Virus record (IMG/VR): IMGVR_UViG_3300017648_000005
Span: 1 to 43,568 of that record
Length of the DNA: 43,568 bases
Direction: 5' to 3' (one strand)
DNA from: a virus
Lineage: Duplodnaviria; Caudoviricetes
Shown: piece by piece, positions 2,863 to 39,907 of the stretch
Layout: every line of letters starts with the position of its first letter
Position numbering within the stretch: the stretch's first letter is position 1
Translations under genes and position numbers: made by a program
Notes under the pieces: generated by a model
The model's database searches: none
Told to the model about the DNA's origin: nothing
What the model saw: only the letters and a program-made list of their open reading frames with translations

Positions 2863-3156
2863 TTAATTATTTATCAAAGTCGGGTTTGTTATAGGAAATG
2901 GATATAAGAAAATGTTAAACCGATGTATGCAAAGCAACGTATTAGGTATATAATAACATTCAGAGTTAATCGCTACTATTCCTATGGGATGGTAGGTCAA
3001 GAGCAGAGCGGGAGGGCAGAAATGTCTCTCCCGTTTCTTTATTATGGAGGGGAAACGCAGGGTGTATGCATCGTCCAAGTAAATTTTTATCGCTTGCGGA
3101 GTTAATGGTATTCTTAGTTCAAATATAACGTCACCGTTATCATCTTTAATTTTCAT
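2863..3156 (-). CDS. Hypothetical protein (3' half doubtful)
   Basis: ATGA-coupled to upstream 3153-3314 gene; AGGAG RBS. Confidence 0.45.
   Translation of the reverse strand: MKIKDDNGDVIFELRIPLTPQAIKIYLDDAYTLRFPSIIKKRERHFCPPALLLTYHPIGIVAINSECYYIPNTLLCIHRFNIFLYPFPITNPTLINN
2961..3040 (+). ncRNA. Candidate ~80-nt small RNA
   Basis: TATAAT 2949-2954; hairpin 2973-2995; GAAA-loop terminator 3009-3033 plus T tract. Confidence 0.5.
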
Positions 3157-4030: not shown

Positions 4031-4076
4031 TAGTTATCATTTATTGGTCAATAAACAAACCATAGAATGATAACTA
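4031..4076. other. Putative attP
   Basis: 46-bp imperfect inverted repeat with perfect outer arms TAGTTATCATT/AATGATAACTA, overlapping the integrase stop; central dinucleotide AA at 4053-4054. Confidence 0.7.
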
Positions 4077-5618
4077 CTTAATAATCCTCGGATCGATCTC
4101 CAACTTAAATTCCCCGCCTCGTTGATCGTTTCCTTTCCAGTATCGGATTTCGGCTATGACTTCTTTTAGGAACATGTTTTTCCGTTTCACGTCTTTAGAG
4201 GAGACGTAGTATTTCAGAACATTCTCCAACTTAGGCAATAGCTCGGTTTGATTCTGCTTCCGTTGGCGTTCCTGTTCTAGTTCTCCTTCCAACTTTTCGA
4301 GCTGCTTTGTCGTTTCCTCGATTCGCTCTGAAAGTGTTCGAGATCGCTCCAAGAAAATCTCCTGCGTATAGATACGCTGTTCCAATAGATCAAATTGGTT
4401 CGCCCGTTGTTCCTCATATAATTTTAATTGATCTCTCTTTTCTTGGACAAGCCTTTCTTTTAATTGTAAAGCATGCGATGTCCGGGGCTTTCGTGTCTTA
4501 ATCTCGACTTTCAAGTCCTTAATCCACGCTCGCAGGAAATTCAATACTTTATCCTCGATCAGATCGTACCGAACACTGCGGTTATCACAATGCTTATTGT
4601 TGCATTTGAGATAGAAGATTTCGTGATTCTTGGGATGACGTTTCAGAACCAATGTGAAGCCGCATTTCCCGCACTTCACGATCCCGGCCAACGCATTGAT
4701 CGGGGGATAGGCTTTTTTATTTCGTATAAGGATGTTGTTTTTCTTCTTCTCCTGGACACGAAAAAACAAATCCTCGTCAATGATGGCAGGATGCAGGCCG
4801 GGAACGTCGATGATCTTTTCTTTCGGTCTTTGTCTGATGTCGTATTTCTTATCCGGCAAATTTACCTTTTTGCGAGATTGCTTCCTAAACTGGATGCGAC
4901 CAATATAAACGGGATTCTTGAGAATTTGAAGGATGACATTGAAATTCCACGCCTTTCCGTTATACGACGGTATTTGCAGTTCATCCGTCAGCTTACGGGC
5001 AATTTCCGTCGAGCTTATACCTTCATCGTACCATTGGAACATGAGTCTGACGATATCCGCTTGTTCATTCGGTTTAAGCGTCCTCACACCGTCCTGATGG
5101 TGGATGTCGTAGCCATAGGGCGGTCGGGTGCCGATATACTTTCCTGACTCCGCAGAGATGTCACGACCCCTCTGAAGGCGTCTGGTGATCATTCTCAGCT
5201 CCTGACGAGCGAAAAGAGAGGTTATGTCAGCCTGGAATTCGTCGGATTCGTCATTGAGGTCAAGGACTTTATGCGGGGATACGATCAGGACATTGTTGGA
5301 TCGGAATGAATTCAGGATGAACCCTTGTTCCTGCATGTTCCCACGCGAGAGCCGGTCTTGATCCATGACTAATACGCCGCGTGTCGGACGTTCATTGATC
5401 CAGTCCAATAAACGCAGCATTTCCGTCCGGTCGCTCAGTCGTTCGCCGGATATGACTTCTTCGAAGATTTCCACGATATTTAATTTATGATGATTTGCGA
5501 ACTTCATTAGAACGGATTTATGTTTCGCCAGCGTTTCTCCTTCGCCGCGCAGTTCTGCTTCCAGATCGGCGCGGCTCTTGCGTAGATAGATGACGTATTC
5601 ACCTTGAGGTAGGTTCAT
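4074..5618 (-). CDS. Large serine recombinase (integrase)
   Basis: YLRKSR catalytic Ser, DRLSRG, PPYGY recombinase domain, CGKCG zinc ribbon, coiled coil. Confidence 0.95.
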   Translation of the reverse strand: MNLPQGEYVIYLRKSRADLEAELRGEGETLAKHKSVLMKFANHHKLNIVEIFEEVISGERLSDRTEMLRLLDWINERPTRGVLVMDQDRLSRGNMQEQGFILNSFRSNNVLIVSPHKVLDLNDESDEFQADITSLFARQELRMITRRLQRGRDISAESGKYIGTRPPYGYDIHHQDGVRTLKPNEQADIVRLMFQWYDEGISSTEIARKLTDELQIPSYNGKAWNFNVILQILKNPVYIGRIQFRKQSRKKVNLPDKKYDIRQRPKEKIIDVPGLHPAIIDEDLFFRVQEKKKNNILIRNKKAYPPINALAGIVKCGKCGFTLVLKRHPKNHEIFYLKCNNKHCDNRSVRYDLIEDKVLNFLRAWIKDLKVEIKTRKPRTSHALQLKERLVQEKRDQLKLYEEQRANQFDLLEQRIYTQEIFLERSRTLSERIEETTKQLEKLEGELEQERQRKQNQTELLPKLENVLKYYVSSKDVKRKNMFLKEVIAEIRYWKGNDQRGGEFKLEIDPRIIK

Positions 5619-5658
5619 GGTTTAGGCTCCTATTAGGTAAGAATAAGCCCTGCGTAGA

Positions 5659-6306
5659 TTAATTCAAATTAACATCTTCGTTTCTTTCATATTTCCTGGT
5701 GGCTATAGCAAGGATTGAATTGGCAACTAACAATTCAAGCGGAAGTAAAGGTAATCTAAGAAGTAAATAAATCAGGCCGCCTTGCCACCAGTAGAACACA
5801 AATGCGAGTATTATTAGAACCAATAATACAAGGCCACAAACTGATTCGATTGTCGCTTTCATTGACCCGTTTCCGTATCTACCGATTGAGTAGATAATAC
5901 CAAACACAAAACTAGAAAGCATCATGATAGACCAAATAAGATCAGGTTTAAAGAATTCATATAATCTGTATACTTCTGGACTAATATATGATTGAACGAA
6001 GAGTATTGAAAATAAAATAAGTCCATGTCTCAAGAAGGGGTAATTATCTTTAATGGGAAGAGACGTATTAATTAGGAACGAAAAAATGATTGCCATGATG
6101 TAGTATGTGAATACATTATAACCAAATATGTACAATATCATCGTTTGAAAAATTGTGCAGATAAATAAATACCAAAGAAATCGGAAAAACAAACCGATAA
6201 AATAGCCTTGAGTGTGACCATTCATACTTTTCACCATAAAATTTCCCGATCGGCTCGGGGATTTGCTAATTTTTAATGGATTCATCTTCTTCTGAGGATT
6301 TCTCAC
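5659..6306 (-). CDS. Multi-pass membrane protein (start uncertain)
   Basis: About 6 hydrophobic segments; AT-rich. Confidence 0.7.
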   Translation of the reverse strand: MRNPQKKMNPLKISKSPSRSGNFMVKSMNGHTQGYFIGLFFRFLWYLFICTIFQTMILYIFGYNVFTYYIMAIIFSFLINTSLPIKDNYPFLRHGLILFSILFVQSYISPEVYRLYEFFKPDLIWSIMMLSSFVFGIIYSIGRYGNGSMKATIESVCGLVLLVLIILAFVFYWWQGGLIYLLLRLPLLPLELLVANSILAIATRKYERNEDVNLN

Positions 6307-6601
6307 TCAGACCAACAACAACCATAACGATAAGGCCGATCACGAATGCTATTATTCCTGCATATCGATCATCCAGGTGGGCTTGTCCAGCTAAATATGT
6401 AATAGCGAAACTACCGAGAATCCAGATTAATAGAAATAAGACCGTGCCAAGTATCCATCGGTTTGTTTTATTGGTTATATCTTGGTTCTGTTTTTCGACT
6501 GATTGAACAGCAATAGCATCATCGGTTAAAAGTTTATTCCCGCATTGACCGCAGAACTTTTGTGCTGGATTGGTATGTCCGCACTTTGAACAGACGATCA
6601 T
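6266..6601 (-). CDS. Zinc-ribbon plus two-TM membrane protein
   Basis: CSKCG...FCGQCG followed by two TM segments; GGAGG RBS. Confidence 0.8.
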   Translation of the reverse strand: MIVCSKCGHTNPAQKFCGQCGNKLLTDDAIAVQSVEKQNQDITNKTNRWILGTVLFLLIWILGSFAITYLAGQAHLDDRYAGIIAFVIGLIVMVVVGLSEKSSEEDESIKN

Positions 6602-6645
6602 TAATAACCAAACCTCCAATAATCTTAAAATTTCGACAAAATGTA

Positions 6646-6674
6646 TGGAAAAGAAAACGATTTCATGGTACTAT
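6646..6674 (+). promoter_or_regulatory. Promoter driving the c-di-GMP aptamer
   Basis: TGGAAA-17bp-TACTAT with extended -10 TG. Confidence 0.55.
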
Positions 6675-6685
6675 ATCCATTACCT

Positions 6686-6786
6686 ACTAAAAAACGACAA
6701 ACGGCAAACCTTCCGAAAGGATGGGACGCAAAACTATAGGGGCTACGGTCACTTTGACTATGCCAGCCAGGTGCCGAAAGTTTAGT
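6686..6786 (+). ncRNA. Cyclic di-GMP-I (GEMM) riboswitch aptamer
   Basis: GGCAAACC-ttcc-GAAA-ggat-GGGACGCAAA...GGGGCTACG...ATGCCAGCCAGGTGCCG matches the GEMM consensus, including the GAAA tetraloop. Confidence 0.9.
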
Positions 6787-6863
6787 TTTTTTGTCTCTTT
6801 TTATATAGTTCACTCATGGGTGAACTTCTTGTTCCCGAATGGCAATTTGTGAATTTGCCATTA

Positions 6864-7097
6864 TTACCGATCCCGATTCCGAGAGGGAGTTTCTTTCCAT
6901 ACATATAGATCATCTATAGGAACCATGAAATATTCAGCGATGGTTTTGGCCGTCTGGATCGACATGACCTTTCTCATATTTGCGTAATCAGACAGTTGAG
7001 ATTTCGATATTCCCAACGCAAGTGATAGTTCTTGAGCTTGCATTTTTCTCTCTCGGATTAGTTCGGGGATTCGGCATTTTTCGGGAACAAATGCCAT
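6864..7097 (-). CDS. Small XRE-family HTH regulator
   Basis: Cro/C1-type HTH (LGISKSQLSDY); followed by hairpin 6838-6862. Confidence 0.85.
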   Translation of the reverse strand: MAFVPEKCRIPELIRERKMQAQELSLALGISKSQLSDYANMRKVMSIQTAKTIAEYFMVPIDDLYVWKETPSRNRDR

Positions 7098-7224
7098 AAA
7101 ATACCCCTTAAAATATTTTTGCTCTACATGTTGTGTTCTGGTATCAAATTATCAAGGAGAGTGAGAACATGAATACAATATATTGAATTCTCTAAATAAT
7201 TGCTTAAAATCAGCCATTGAAATA

Positions 7225-7238
7225 GGAACAGTCGTTCG
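7225..7238. promoter_or_regulatory. LexA (Cheo) SOS box inside a + strand promoter
   Basis: GGAACAGTCGTTCG vs consensus CGAAC-N4-GTTCG, between TTGAAA (7217) and TATAAAAT (7239). Confidence 0.8.
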
Positions 7239-7298
7239 TATAAAATAGTCATGTAGCCTGTCGCAAAAGTCCCTGAATACATAATGGGCGGTGTTCGC

Positions 7299-7457
7299 AT
7301 GGTGGAATCATCGTTTATAGAGTTTATAAAGAACGCTAATTATGAACAATTAAGTTCCTTGATAGAACGATTACCGTGCCATACTTGTGATTGTTCAAAG
7401 AAGTGTAATTTGCTAGAGCTTTTGATTGAACGACAGTCTATTGACCCTCGTCTTTGA
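7299..7457 (+). CDS. 52-aa Cys-rich protein, SOS-controlled antirepressor candidate
   Basis: GGCGGTG RBS; MVESSFIEFIKNANYEQLSSLIERLPCHTCDCSKKCNLLELLIERQSIDPRL. Confidence 0.55.
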   Translation: MVESSFIEFIKNANYEQLSSLIERLPCHTCDCSKKCNLLELLIERQSIDPRL

Positions 7458-7800
7458 GGACTCGGGCTAAATCATCAAAAAGTTTACGTTTGTGCGGCGG
7501 CATATTAAAATATGCTTCCGCTATTTTACGTGTGTTTTCATCATTCATGATATTGACACTGTAAGCTGCAGATGGTTCTTTTAGTAAAGTTTTATTTACT
7601 TCCCTCCCTGTTAACAACCAATCGATGTCAACGTGATATAATTCTGCTAGTTTTCTCAGGATTTCTGTATCGGGATCGCGGTAATCTCTTTCATATCCAG
7701 ATAAAGTACCATTGGATATTCCGAGTTTTTTTGCCACTTCTACTTGGGTCAATCTGCTGTTTTCACGCGATTTCTTTAACCTCGAACCAAGCGTCTTCAT
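7438..7800 (-). CDS. Phage immunity repressor (XRE HTH, no S24 protease domain)
   Basis: HTH_3 motif; divergent from cro-like gene. Confidence 0.9.
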   Translation of the reverse strand: MKTLGSRLKKSRENSRLTQVEVAKKLGISNGTLSGYERDYRDPDTEILRKLAELYHVDIDWLLTGREVNKTLLKEPSAAYSVNIMNDENTRKIAEAYFNMPPHKRKLFDDLARVLKDEGQ

Positions 7801-7961: not shown

Positions 7962-8192
7962 ATGAACCCAATCGAATTGATGGAACAAACAAGGAAACGC
8001 AAAGGAATCACAAAAACCCATATCGCTAGGCATTGCGGTCGTTCTGTATCGTGGTATGCCGACATAGCGAAAGGACGACGAAGAGTTTACCTTGATGACT
8101 TTATGATGATCGCAGATGCAATGGGCGAAAATGTAACAAATTTTTTTAGAAACCAATTAAGCGTAACGCGCAATACGAAAGAGTCCGCGTAA
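7962..8192 (+). CDS. Cro-like HTH regulator
   Basis: HTH; first gene of early operon; operator copy at 8158-8173. Confidence 0.85.
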   Translation: MNPIELMEQTRKRKGITKTHIARHCGRSVSWYADIAKGRRRVYLDDFMMIADAMGENVTNFFRNQLSVTRNTKESA

Positions 8193-17062: not shown

Positions 17063-17929
17063 ATGGCAGAAATCAAGTGGATCAAAATCACAACGGATAT
17101 GTTCGAGGACGAGAAAATCGACTTCATCTCAAGCTTACCTGAATCTGATGCAATCATCGTGATATGGATTCGTCTTCTCACATTAGCCGGGAAATGCAAT
17201 GCCGGGGGATATGTATTCTTGACCGAGAAAATCCCGTATACCGACGAAATGCTGGCTCATAAATTCAAAAAGCCATTGAATATTATCAAACTCGCGCTAG
17301 ATACATTCCGAAGGCTGGACATGATCGAGATGGACGAAAAGGGAATATACCTTCAAAACTGGGAGAAACATCAGAATTTCGAAGCCCTCGAAGCTTATCG
17401 AGAGCGTGAGCGGATTCGTAAGCAAGAATACCGTCAAAAGAAACGTTTGGAATTGTCCGGGACAAGTCCGGGACAGTCCCACAAAAATCCGCGCCTAGAT
17501 ATAGATATAGAAAAAGAATATGAAGAAGATTTAAGAAAGCCTGGAATCCTCGATGCTCATTATCAAGCATTCAAAAAATGGAACATGACATCAGCGATGG
17601 ATGATTATGTGAGAAACCTTAGAAACCGTGGTGTTCCTGAGGAATTTATCGTCGAAGTCATCTTAGAAATGGGTGAACGAGGGATCAGCCCGAACGTCAA
17701 GTACATGGTTAAAGTAGCGGAGGATTGGTTGAGTAAAGGCATCAAGAACAGAGAAGAAGCAAAAGCCTACAGCGAACGCTTGAAATCCAAAGTATCGCCT
17801 ATCAACAAGAACGGATCGAGTAGCAAACCCAAAATGCCCGTACACAAACCAAATAAAAGCACAGTCACAGATGAAGAATACGATGCCATATTACGCAAAA
17901 TCCGTGAGGCTGAGGCGTCAAATCAGTGA
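17063..17929 (+). CDS. Replication initiator (replisome organizer, DnaD-like C-terminal domain)
   Basis: MAEIKWIKITTDMFEDEKI N-terminus; YMVKVAEDWLSKGI motif. Confidence 0.9.
   Translation: MAEIKWIKITTDMFEDEKIDFISSLPESDAIIVIWIRLLTLAGKCNAGGYVFLTEKIPYTDEMLAHKFKKPLNIIKLALDTFRRLDMIEMDEKGIYLQNWEKHQNFEALEAYRERERIRKQEYRQKKRLELSGTSPGQSHKNPRLDIDIEKEYEEDLRKPGILDAHYQAFKKWNMTSAMDDYVRNLRNRGVPEEFIVEVILEMGERGISPNVKYMVKVAEDWLSKGIKNREEAKAYSERLKSKVSPINKNGSSSKPKMPVHKPNKSTVTDEEYDAILRKIREAEASNQ
17455..17510. other. Putative replication origin (iterons)
   Basis: GTCCGGGACA x2 plus GTCCCACA and ATATAG repeats inside initiator gene. Confidence 0.6.
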
Positions 17930-17972
17930 GCTGGAATCAAGTCAAGAAGTGGGAAATAGGGGAGGGAAAGGC

Positions 17973-18788
17973 ATGTTGACCTTCTACGATGCGTTTCACG
18001 GTATCGGAGGATTTAGATACGGATTAGAACAAGCTGGCATGAAATGTATCGGAGGCTGCGAGATTGATAAATATGCTTGTAAAGCATACGGGGTGATTAA
18101 CAATGAGCGATGCGAACCAACTGACATTAGACATGTGGATGCCGGAAGCCTTCCAAGCTTCGACTGTCTCGTTTTCGGATGGCCTTGCCAAGATAATTCC
18201 ATTGCTGGAAAGCGAAATGGACAACGAGAAGGAACTCGAAGCGGCCTATTGTTTGAAGCAGCTCGAATATTACGGGTTAAACAGCCCAAGTATTTTATCG
18301 CTGAAAACGTACCAGGTCTGTTTTCCGTCAATGACGGAATCGACTTCTACAAAACAATTCGACTGTTCACCGACTTGGGGTATGACTGTCAATGGCAAGT
18401 ACTTAATTCAAGGTGGTTTCTCCCCCACAATCGAGAGCGGATTTTCTTTGTCGGACATCTTGGAAGATTATCCAGACCAAGAGTATTTCCTTTCACTGAA
18501 CAGCATTGGATTTCTGGCGAATCACGCAGGGAAGAGGGGGCGATATCTCCTTGTTTACGAGCAAAGTTGGGGGGGGCTGATATCGAAGAAGTTTACGTCA
18601 TCGACCCAAATCGAGGAGTACGCCGCGCAACAATCTTGGAGCGTTTCCGTCTCCAAGGCTACCCAGACGAATGGTACTACAAATGCAAAGAAGCCGGCAT
18701 AAGCAAAACACAACTTAGTAAAATGGCAGGCAATGGAGTTAGTAGTCCAGTTGCAAGAGAAATCGGGAAAAGGTTGGTTGCATCATAA
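17973..18788 (+). CDS. DNA (cytosine-5) methyltransferase
   Basis: FHGIGG, GWPCQ, ENV, RERIF, GNGV motifs. Confidence 0.92.
   Translation: MLTFYDAFHGIGGFRYGLEQAGMKCIGGCEIDKYACKAYGVINNERCEPTDIRHVDAGSLPSFDCLVFGWPCQDNSIAGKRNGQREGTRSGLLFEAARILRVKQPKYFIAENVPGLFSVNDGIDFYKTIRLFTDLGYDCQWQVLNSRWFLPHNRERIFFVGHLGRLSRPRVFPFTEQHWISGESRREEGAISPCLRAKLGGADIEEVYVIDPNRGVRRATILERFRLQGYPDEWYYKCKEAGISKTQLSKMAGNGVSSPVAREIGKRLVAS
18103..18702 (+). CDS. Nested alternative-frame ORF resembling an M.EcoHK31I beta-type subunit
   Basis: 199 aa in shifted frame; GGGGTGA RBS; WGM..NG and SLSDILE..PD.EYFLS motifs. Confidence 0.6.
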   Translation: MSDANQLTLDMWMPEAFQASTVSFSDGLAKIIPLLESEMDNEKELEAAYCLKQLEYYGLNSPSILSLKTYQVCFPSMTESTSTKQFDCSPTWGMTVNGKYLIQGGFSPTIESGFSLSDILEDYPDQEYFLSLNSIGFLANHAGKRGRYLLVYEQSWGGLISKKFTSSTQIEEYAAQQSWSVSVSKATQTNGTTNAKKPA

Positions 18789-39327: not shown

Positions 39328-39657
39328 TTATGGTTTTGGTTTTTGAATATTACACTCCGGATTGAGACGTTCTATTTTTGCTGCTTCTTCATAATCGCGA
39401 TTTTCTTGTCTTTCAATCACGATCCAACAAACCGACACGATATATTTTTGAACATTGTTTCTCAAGCAATCATTCGGTTCATCTTCGCGTAGATGTTCTA
39501 ACAGACGAGATCGCAAATTTTTAGCTTGCCCAACATAAATAAAGCGCCAACTTTCATCTTTAAGTTGTACTCTGATGATATAAACACCTGGACTCATCGG
39601 GACTTTTGATGTGACCTGATCTTTATTATACGGAATATACGTCGAATAACTTGCCAA
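39328..39657 (-). CDS. Stand-alone GIY-YIG nuclease
   Basis: GVYII...IYVGQAKNLRSRLLEH...E...NPECN; TTG start after AGGGGTGA. Confidence 0.85.
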   Translation of the reverse strand: MASYSTYIPYNKDQVTSKVPMSPGVYIIRVQLKDESWRFIYVGQAKNLRSRLLEHLREDEPNDCLRNNVQKYIVSVCWIVIERQENRDYEEAAKIERLNPECNIQKPKP

Positions 39658-39691
39658 AAAAATCACCCCTAAATTGAAAGGATTGAAAAAA

Positions 39692-39907
39692 ATGAAAATC
39701 AAATTTATTCTGTCTGCAATCTGGAGTATACTTACAGGGAAGGCATCCGTGGTACCGAGAACATTTACGAGGGAAGACGTGGTAGTTGGGAGGTTTTCGA
39801 TCCACACGAGTACAAATTACACAAGAATAAGCTTAAATGGTCGTGAATTCTACTTTACACCAGATGGTGAATTTGATGGGACTGGCTCTAGCCTTTGTCA
39901 TGAGTAA
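39692..39907 (+). CDS. Hypothetical protein
   Basis: AAAGGA upstream; protein-like composition. Confidence 0.45.
   Translation: MKIKFILSAIWSILTGKASVVPRTFTREDVVVGRFSIHTSTNYTRISLNGREFYFTPDGEFDGTGSSLCHE

Follow-up and report, generated by a model that had tools for sequence, protein, structure and literature searches.

A c-di-GMP-I riboswitch facing a YopS-like HTH gene recurs in phage decision modules and may gate antisense read-through

We describe a c-di-GMP-I riboswitch that precedes no sense gene and instead runs head-on into a small HTH gene related to yopS of SPbeta, in the immunity region of the phage IMGVR_UViG_3300017648_000005 (Caudoviricetes), of which we analyzed a stretch of 43,568 nucleotides (positions 1 to 43,568 of the record, hereafter the window). 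The same layout occurs in ten other phage or prophage loci, and a host lifestyle signal therefore likely gates a read-through transcript that would influence when the prophage wakes. In the reading that we favor, at a probability of about 0.45, the aptamer is a ligand-gated attenuator and the read-through RNA is antisense across the YopS-like HTH gene. The RNA family and the class of geometry are known; what is new is their recurrent context in phage decision modules. The window itself is a temperate phage, with genes for a serine recombinase, HTH regulators, replication proteins, a terminase, a portal protein and an amidase (Pfam, 43 proteins).

The Rfam covariance model of the c-di-GMP-I family (RF01051) matches positions 6693–6778 of the plus strand over its full length (model 1–87), with 72.3 bits (gathering threshold, 35 bits; E-value 2.1e-12), and this is the sole Rfam match in the whole window. 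A weak closing helix (6686–6691 with 6781–6786; −3.6 kcal/mol) lengthens the core to 6686–6786. The covariance model thus bears out the near-canonical GEMM aptamer that an initial annotation of this DNA, made from its letters, had placed at these positions, together with its identification of 6703 as the G expected of a c-di-GMP sensor. Indeed, in the alignment to the model, G6703 is equivalent to G20 and C6774 to C92 of the binding pocket, and the GAAA tetraloop is present as in the Vc2 type. We take A6730 to be the equivalent of A47. The 11 aptamers with the same layout score 63.9–80 bits and have intact pockets, with a G at position 20 in every one (one alignment row is shifted by one column). 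G20 reads c-di-GMP, and Vc2, which is of the G20 type, is reported to have a KD for 3'3'-cGAMP of only 10 µM versus picomolar for c-di-GMP (PMC6140456, which also describes the roles of G20 and C92 in the pocket). The alternative specificity for cGAMP (GEMM-Ib, A at position 20) was rejected on the basis of G6703 and of the G in all 11 loci. Stem pairing is maintained in 93% of 187 cells across the 11 aptamers, with both sides changed in 21 of them, and none of 500 shuffles matches this, in a test that ignores kinship among the rows and whose pair-level variant is matched by 52 of 500 shuffles. MFE folding does not pick out the aptamer (z = −0.22). Contigs from two runs of the probable source sample cross the riboswitch and the HTH gene with zero differences, although they are not independent of the window.

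Upstream of the aptamer lies a predicted sigma-A promoter with an extended −10 (TGGAAA-17-TG-N-TACTAT; 6646–6674, plus strand), from which transcripts would start near 6681–6682. It is the best-scoring site found by our script and plausible by eye, yet it falls below the threshold of the consensus scan and is missing from the 13 sites which that scan reports in the window; the aptamer's own promoter, which the initial annotation had taken as seen, is therefore only predicted. A perfect, putative Spo0A (0A) box (TGTCGAA, 6632–6638, minus strand; consensus from PMC2731898) lies 7 bp upstream of the predicted −35, and of 14 phage riboswitch loci, 5 have such a box in the 150 nt upstream, where 0.9 would be expected. 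0A boxes are also found at this distance in 20 of the 80 genome riboswitch loci listed (L075–L154; 3.5 expected), as well as in the yopR–yopS gap of SPbeta and phi3T (L214, L215), and double control by Spo0A and c-di-GMP may be common.

On the other side, the aptamer is followed directly, as had been claimed, by a U tract (U7 at 6786–6792), which continues through GUCUC into U5 (6786–6802), and an RNA of about 110 nt likely ends at this U-rich tail, of which L073, L178 and L102 have similar versions. No sense ORF with a usable Shine–Dalgarno (SD) sequence lies downstream of the aptamer in the window, where a 30-codon ORF at about 6817 lacks one, and no sense ORF behind the aptamer is conserved among the 11 loci. 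Two ORFs of 62 and 71 codons that overlap the aptamer were rejected as genes because they are not kept in relatives. The riboswitch is thus not in the usual position, the 5' leader of a sense gene. As initially described, it points at the convergent HTH gene 6864–7097 (minus strand); 85 nt separate the Rfam core from the stop codon of this gene, with no intervening sense gene, which gives it the geometry expected of a candidate antisense-acting riboswitch, a convergent gene within 500 nt.

The faced gene encodes a 77-aa XRE HTH protein (Pfam HTH_26/HTH_3) whose best annotated phage match is YopS of SPbeta (31 of 63 residues identical, 49%). A search of annotated phages with this protein returned 30 records at an E-value of at most 1e-6, 23 of them SPbeta-type at 46–49% identity; we found no description of YopS function in the literature searched. 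Between the U-rich tail and the HTH stop codon lies an 18-bp palindrome (6808–6825), which the initial annotation had counted, as a further hairpin (6808–6827), among the parts of the switch. Among HTH loci that lack a riboswitch, 20 of 25 (four being near copies) have a palindrome in the zone past the HTH stop, as do 5 of 11 riboswitch loci; the rate is 18% in shuffles and 5 of 36 in controls placed inside genes. SPbeta has an annotated 18-bp palindrome about 35–40 nt past the yopS stop. Because it is common to riboswitch-less loci and to SPbeta, we rejected the hairpin as a riboswitch terminator and assign it to the 3' cassette of the YopS-like gene. The palindrome of YopS-like genes (window 6808–6825, L162–L191) is variable, about 18 bp long and 40–60 nt past the stop, and is possibly the operator of each protein. 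Immediately past the stop codon of the HTH gene, an inverted repeat (6838–6862) has no U tract on either strand, and a similar hairpin follows yopS in SPbeta. The likeness to the yopR–yopS–yopT region of SPbeta extends further, since an SOS box is reported between yopS and yopT (PMC8270828) and the window likewise has one before a divergent small gene, in addition to the YopS-like HTH, the palindrome and a 0A box in the gap. The difference is that, where the window has the riboswitch, SPbeta has the end of the operon of yopR (the master repressor) and a reported AimR operator, placed between yopR and yopS in PMC8612738; the main text of PMC6458997, the source cited for this operator, does not mention yopS.

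Beyond the HTH gene, the consensus scan predicts a plus-strand sigma-A promoter (TTGAAA-18-TAAAAT, 7217–7246) that contains a LexA (Cheo) box (7225–7238), and a similar promoter and box precede a small ORF in most relatives. In the window this ORF (7299–7457, plus strand) has 52 codons, gave no homologs in database searches and overlaps by 20 bp the 3' end of the gene for a 120-aa HTH repressor (7438–7800, minus strand), which has HTH domains only and no autocleavage domain. A divergent cro-like HTH gene (7962–8192, plus strand) heads the early operon. Behind the riboswitch, leftward genes encode a zinc-ribbon membrane protein (6266–6601), a second membrane protein (5659–6306) and a large serine recombinase (4074–5618), all on the minus strand. 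On the minus strand we found no terminator from the HTH stop to these leftward genes (4074–6601), and on the plus strand no strong one between 6827 and 7299. Elsewhere in the window, a C5 cytosine methylase gene lies in the early region (17871–18788, plus strand) and a GIY-YIG nuclease gene (39328–39807, minus strand) stands on the opposite strand among the structural genes. Four other loci (L058, L155, L156, L180) have an extra gene between the recombinase and the HTH cassette, of LytTR type by Pfam in L058 and similar in appearance in the others.

With duplicates merged, a riboswitch faces a YopS-like HTH gene in 11 distinct loci, including the window, in Paenibacillus-type phages and prophages. 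All 11 keep the aptamer, a U tract or terminator, and the convergent HTH gene; eight adjoin a serine recombinase and a repressor, and the other three, at a prophage's lysis end, have no adjacent repressor. Since the layout recurs in Paenibacillus-type loci, the host of the window is probably a Paenibacillus relative. It also follows that the objection raised with the initial annotation, that relatives carry a downstream gene simply deleted here, is improbable at the level of the family, because the 11 loci share the layout without a conserved sense ORF.

These loci came from several searches. Exact-pattern scans of viral contigs yielded 64 + 8 + 21 loci, and an HMM of the HTH protein, run over all 93, found the gene convergent on the aptamer in five distinct contigs (L012/L068, L016/L070, L043/L072, L058, L073); L017 has it upstream of the aptamer and L074 behind a primase gene. 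The scan for other tetraloops had a YopS-like HTH at none of its 21 loci. The L074 aptamer (about 2966–3053, minus strand), an A20 (cGAMP-type) GEMM-I with a terminator, lies between DnaB-like helicase and Toprim primase genes in a 67-kb phage contig and could gate phage replication. A combined riboswitch and HTH pattern, whose loci are by design selected for HTH adjacency, matched 4 of 136 genomes of the Paenibacillus flagellatus family, three of them real and one (L158) rejected as a false match. In the Cohnella/Paenibacillus family it matched 3 of 401 genomes (with three control matches too), none with an aptamer core, and the layout was thus not found there. The HTH HMM alone hit 32 places in 23 of 71 genomes, and 5 of the 30 loci examined have a convergent aptamer, one of these five being in the genome on which this unselected set was centred. 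Conversely, a single locus among the 80 riboswitch loci listed by the genome scan, in a P. flagellatus prophage, faces a YopS-like HTH gene. The riboswitch is absent from 25 of the 30 YopS-like loci and is therefore an accessory input. The HTH proteins of the relatives share only 17–30 identical residues of 70–81 with that of the window, and on a tree of 36 HTH rows, riboswitch presence requires 7 changes versus a shuffled mean of 9.6 (starred branches force two), so that the riboswitch was likely gained or lost repeatedly. Other approaches returned little: an HTH homology search in viral contigs gave only two weak loci, blastn of the region in phage records chance matches only, and plasmids generic aptamer matches only. 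A scan for the tail pattern found 13 viral loci, including L073, and five others examined all lacked an aptamer core; a metagenome scan found three, of which one was the window, another was of Cohnella type, and in the third the regular expression had missed the core. Large viral contigs of 90–240 kb (L018/L220, L217, L020, L224, L229, L234) carry single or tandem GEMM-I aptamers before signal-peptide-like sense genes. The riboswitch-bearing prophage of G076 (L210, 6959–8800) is inserted in a Mn-catalase-family gene, which we take to be the spore-coat gene cotJC, and may be a phage that interrupts a sporulation gene.

As regards the expression platform, base pairing between leader and tail extends as far as the U tract in four loci (the window, L068, L073 and L178). 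This closing helix beats shuffled sequences in L068 (p = 0.002), L178 (p < 0.001) and the chromosomal locus L102 (p = 0.011), but it is no better than shuffles in the window (p = 0.45), L073 (p = 0.40) or seven other loci tested, so that switching may be weak or lost in this phage. Since the helix is strong in L068 and L178 and precedes a sense Hol_Tox gene in L102, we suggest that a closing helix ending at a U tract can act as such a platform; the riboswitch of the window is most simply read as an off-switch. Separate terminators are found in L058, L070, L164 and L165. The antiterminator candidates of such HTH-facing loci are not significant one by one (p = 0.07–0.41) and suggest different directions of control, and computed terminator probabilities do not separate the ligand-bound from the free state of the aptamer. 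In the Cohnella chromosomal loci L102 and L205, a c-di-GMP-I switch with a leader/tail helix at the U tract is followed in sense by a 32-aa Hol_Tox ORF. In L030/L071, a riboswitch lies between a recombinase gene and a convergent copper-amine-oxidase-N-domain gene, with an alternative aptamer/terminator pairing at p = 0.006.

Antisense-acting switches of this family have precedents. Whereas the window shares the full-length match, the GAAA tetraloop and the G20/C92 pocket with canonical c-di-GMP-I riboswitches of the Vc2 type, it departs from them in lacking a downstream sense gene and in facing a gene that converges on it within the immunity region of a phage. In Clostridioides difficile prophages, the c-di-GMP-I switches Cdi1_4 and Cdi1_5 are reported to drive the c-di-GMP-sensitive antisense antitoxin RNAs RCd11 and RCd12, the read-through product being the antisense RNA, with a terminated form of about 140 nt (PMC7699646, PMC3649979, PMC11477304). 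The RNA targeted in that system is reported to be a type I toxin mRNA from the lysis module, with a second promoter playing the larger part; the gene faced in the window encodes a YopS-like HTH protein rather than a small membrane toxin and, among our loci, lies mostly beside integrase and repressor genes. The orphan prophage switch put forward by the initial annotation is thus real in the window, but antisense-driving ones were already on record. A survey (PMC9943018) predicts 152 antisense versus 2,554 sense c-di-GMP switches and reports this family as the most enriched for antisense geometry; in the part of its supplement S3 examined, 18 rows face COG1396 regulators, nine of them in Paenibacillus, read as SinR-like. 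Those c-di-GMP-I loci facing XRE genes (e.g., Paenibacillus P40081_02330) belong to the same geometry class as ours, yet they are predictions only, associated with SinR-like biofilm control and given without phage context, and the example gene has 110 codons and lies 329 nt away.

From these comparisons and the layout we return to the attenuator, for which we infer transcription, ligand-gated termination, an antisense effect and an effect on induction. Transcription would start at the promoter 6646–6674 toward the HTH gene; because the helix that closes the aptamer stops at the U tract, bound c-di-GMP would favor the terminated RNA in this phage, and low c-di-GMP read-through. The read-through RNA would damp the HTH gene, either by duplex decay or by collision, and could extend as far as the antirepressor-like ORF under SOS control, and the sessile/motile signal of the host would thereby join the SOS input of the phage. 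The convergent layout argues for this reading, being found at 5 of 30 unselected YopS-like loci versus one among the 80 riboswitch loci listed, as does the facing of the HTH gene in all 11 loci, even the three at the lysis end. So do the aptamer stems, kept by compensatory changes although the HTH proteins have diverged, and two precedents, the antisense read-through of the C. difficile prophages and the AimR operator reported for the equivalent slot of SPbeta. The hosts of five such prophages have 9–22 GGDEF matches each (five genomes). Against it count the window's closing helix, similar to shuffles, the p values of the antiterminators, and the many YopS-like loci devoid of riboswitch. Moreover, antisense overlap with the repressor is reported as inconsequential in arbitrium phages (bioRxiv 10.1101/2025.11.23.689978), and the C. 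difficile riboswitch transcript as dispensable in tests (PMC7699646, PMC3649979, PMC11477304).

The same bioRxiv preprint describes an extended arbitrium module, aimR–aimP–aimX–aimC–aimL, in which AimX is a small antirepressor; riboswitches are not mentioned in the part of it consulted. The window resembles this module in having a predicted signal-gated antitermination upstream of a LexA box, a LexA-boxed small ORF overlapping the 3' end of a short HTH repressor without autocleavage domain, and a divergent cro-like gene, so that the ORF 7299–7457, the repressor and the cro-like gene correspond by position to aimX, aimC and aimL. It differs in having the riboswitch in the position of aimR and aimP and an opposite-strand HTH gene before the small ORF; no AimR-like family was found among the 43 window proteins scanned, the upstream genes encoding membrane proteins and the recombinase. 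Read-through might accordingly matter less for the HTH gene than for what it delivers, crossing that gene to reach the AimX-like ORF, with the riboswitch replacing antitermination by AimR. The lack of a strong plus-strand terminator on the path agrees with this, and so do L017 (2323–2540, minus strand), where the aptamer is immediately followed by the SD and start of a small ORF weakly similar to that of the window, and L037 (2087–2540, minus strand), where riboswitch, terminator, LexA box and small ORF follow in series. However, most loci provide the small ORF with a LexA-boxed promoter of its own, the three lysis-end loci have no adjacent repressor, and the small ORFs align weakly (26–34% identity), which makes delivery an unlikely main function in our view. 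The wider proposal that in Paenibacillus-type temperate phages a c-di-GMP riboswitch replaces AimR, gating antitermination into the YopS/antirepressor cassette and setting lysis versus lysogeny with SOS and Spo0A, is tentative, though somewhat better placed. L017 and L037 are its plainest cases and the most suitable loci in which to test whether a riboswitch controls induction. We found no report of a riboswitch tied to antirepressors, induction or the lysis–lysogeny decision, or of a phage RNA sponge, in a search of mostly open-access literature.

The riboswitch might also be a relic or a hitch-hiker, a cassette that lost its sense gene or occupies a cargo slot and now does little in this phage. 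A strong SD sequence and ATG with stubs of 3–11 codons are kept in L070, L170 and L183, the strongest indication that a sense gene was lost, and a 30-codon ORF follows the riboswitch in L156. The same type of platform precedes the sense small-toxin gene in Cohnella (L102, L205), the terminator of the window is weak, and presence on the HTH tree is patchy. On the other hand, the bit scores, intact pockets and compensatory stems of all 11 aptamers hold across very divergent phages, and none of the relatives found has a complete sense gene in this very slot. We consider decay about as improbable as antirepressor delivery.

A more doubtful explanation is a free aptamer acting as a sponge, that is, a constitutively terminated RNA of about 110 nt that would act as a buffer for c-di-GMP (lifestyle) or for a CBASS signal. 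It draws on the fact that the RNA in the window, L068, L073 and L178 is little beyond an aptamer closed by its 5'/3' helix at the U tract, and on reports that terminated riboswitch RNAs accumulate in C. difficile. G20, which discriminates against 3'3'-cGAMP, makes the sponge less likely; a single copy binding 1:1 would moreover face the many GGDEF proteins of its hosts and 6–18 riboswitches of their own (two genomes), would have no need to face one gene family in the immunity region each time, and uses a closed design that also precedes a sense gene (L102). Matches to prok_STING were found in none of five host genomes, where the control likewise matched nowhere. Of the two options in the initial annotation, antisense read-through thus fits the 11 HTH-facing loci, and the anti-CBASS sponge is weakly supported. 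Least probable is that the short RNA itself, complementary to a leftward HTH-to-integrase read-through mRNA, or a tiny translated ORF is the effector: no minus-strand terminator was found that would stop such an mRNA, and an "orphan" C. difficile switch later proved to have an unannotated ORF (bioRxiv 10.64898/2026.06.10.731418), but the leftward read-through is an assumption and no small ORF is conserved among the 11 loci, that of the window lacking an SD.

Should the element prove to be no more than a relic, or an accessory input of little strength, it would be an ordinary riboswitch in an unusual place. If the attenuator reading is true, a soil phage reads the biofilm/motility signal of its host by RNA alone and feeds it into its lysis–lysogeny switch, a protein-free counterpart of arbitrium antitermination. 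The prophage of P. flagellatus (L107) offers a cultured test case for antisense-acting riboswitches, very few of which have been validated, and the locus offers a handle on the unstudied YopS family.
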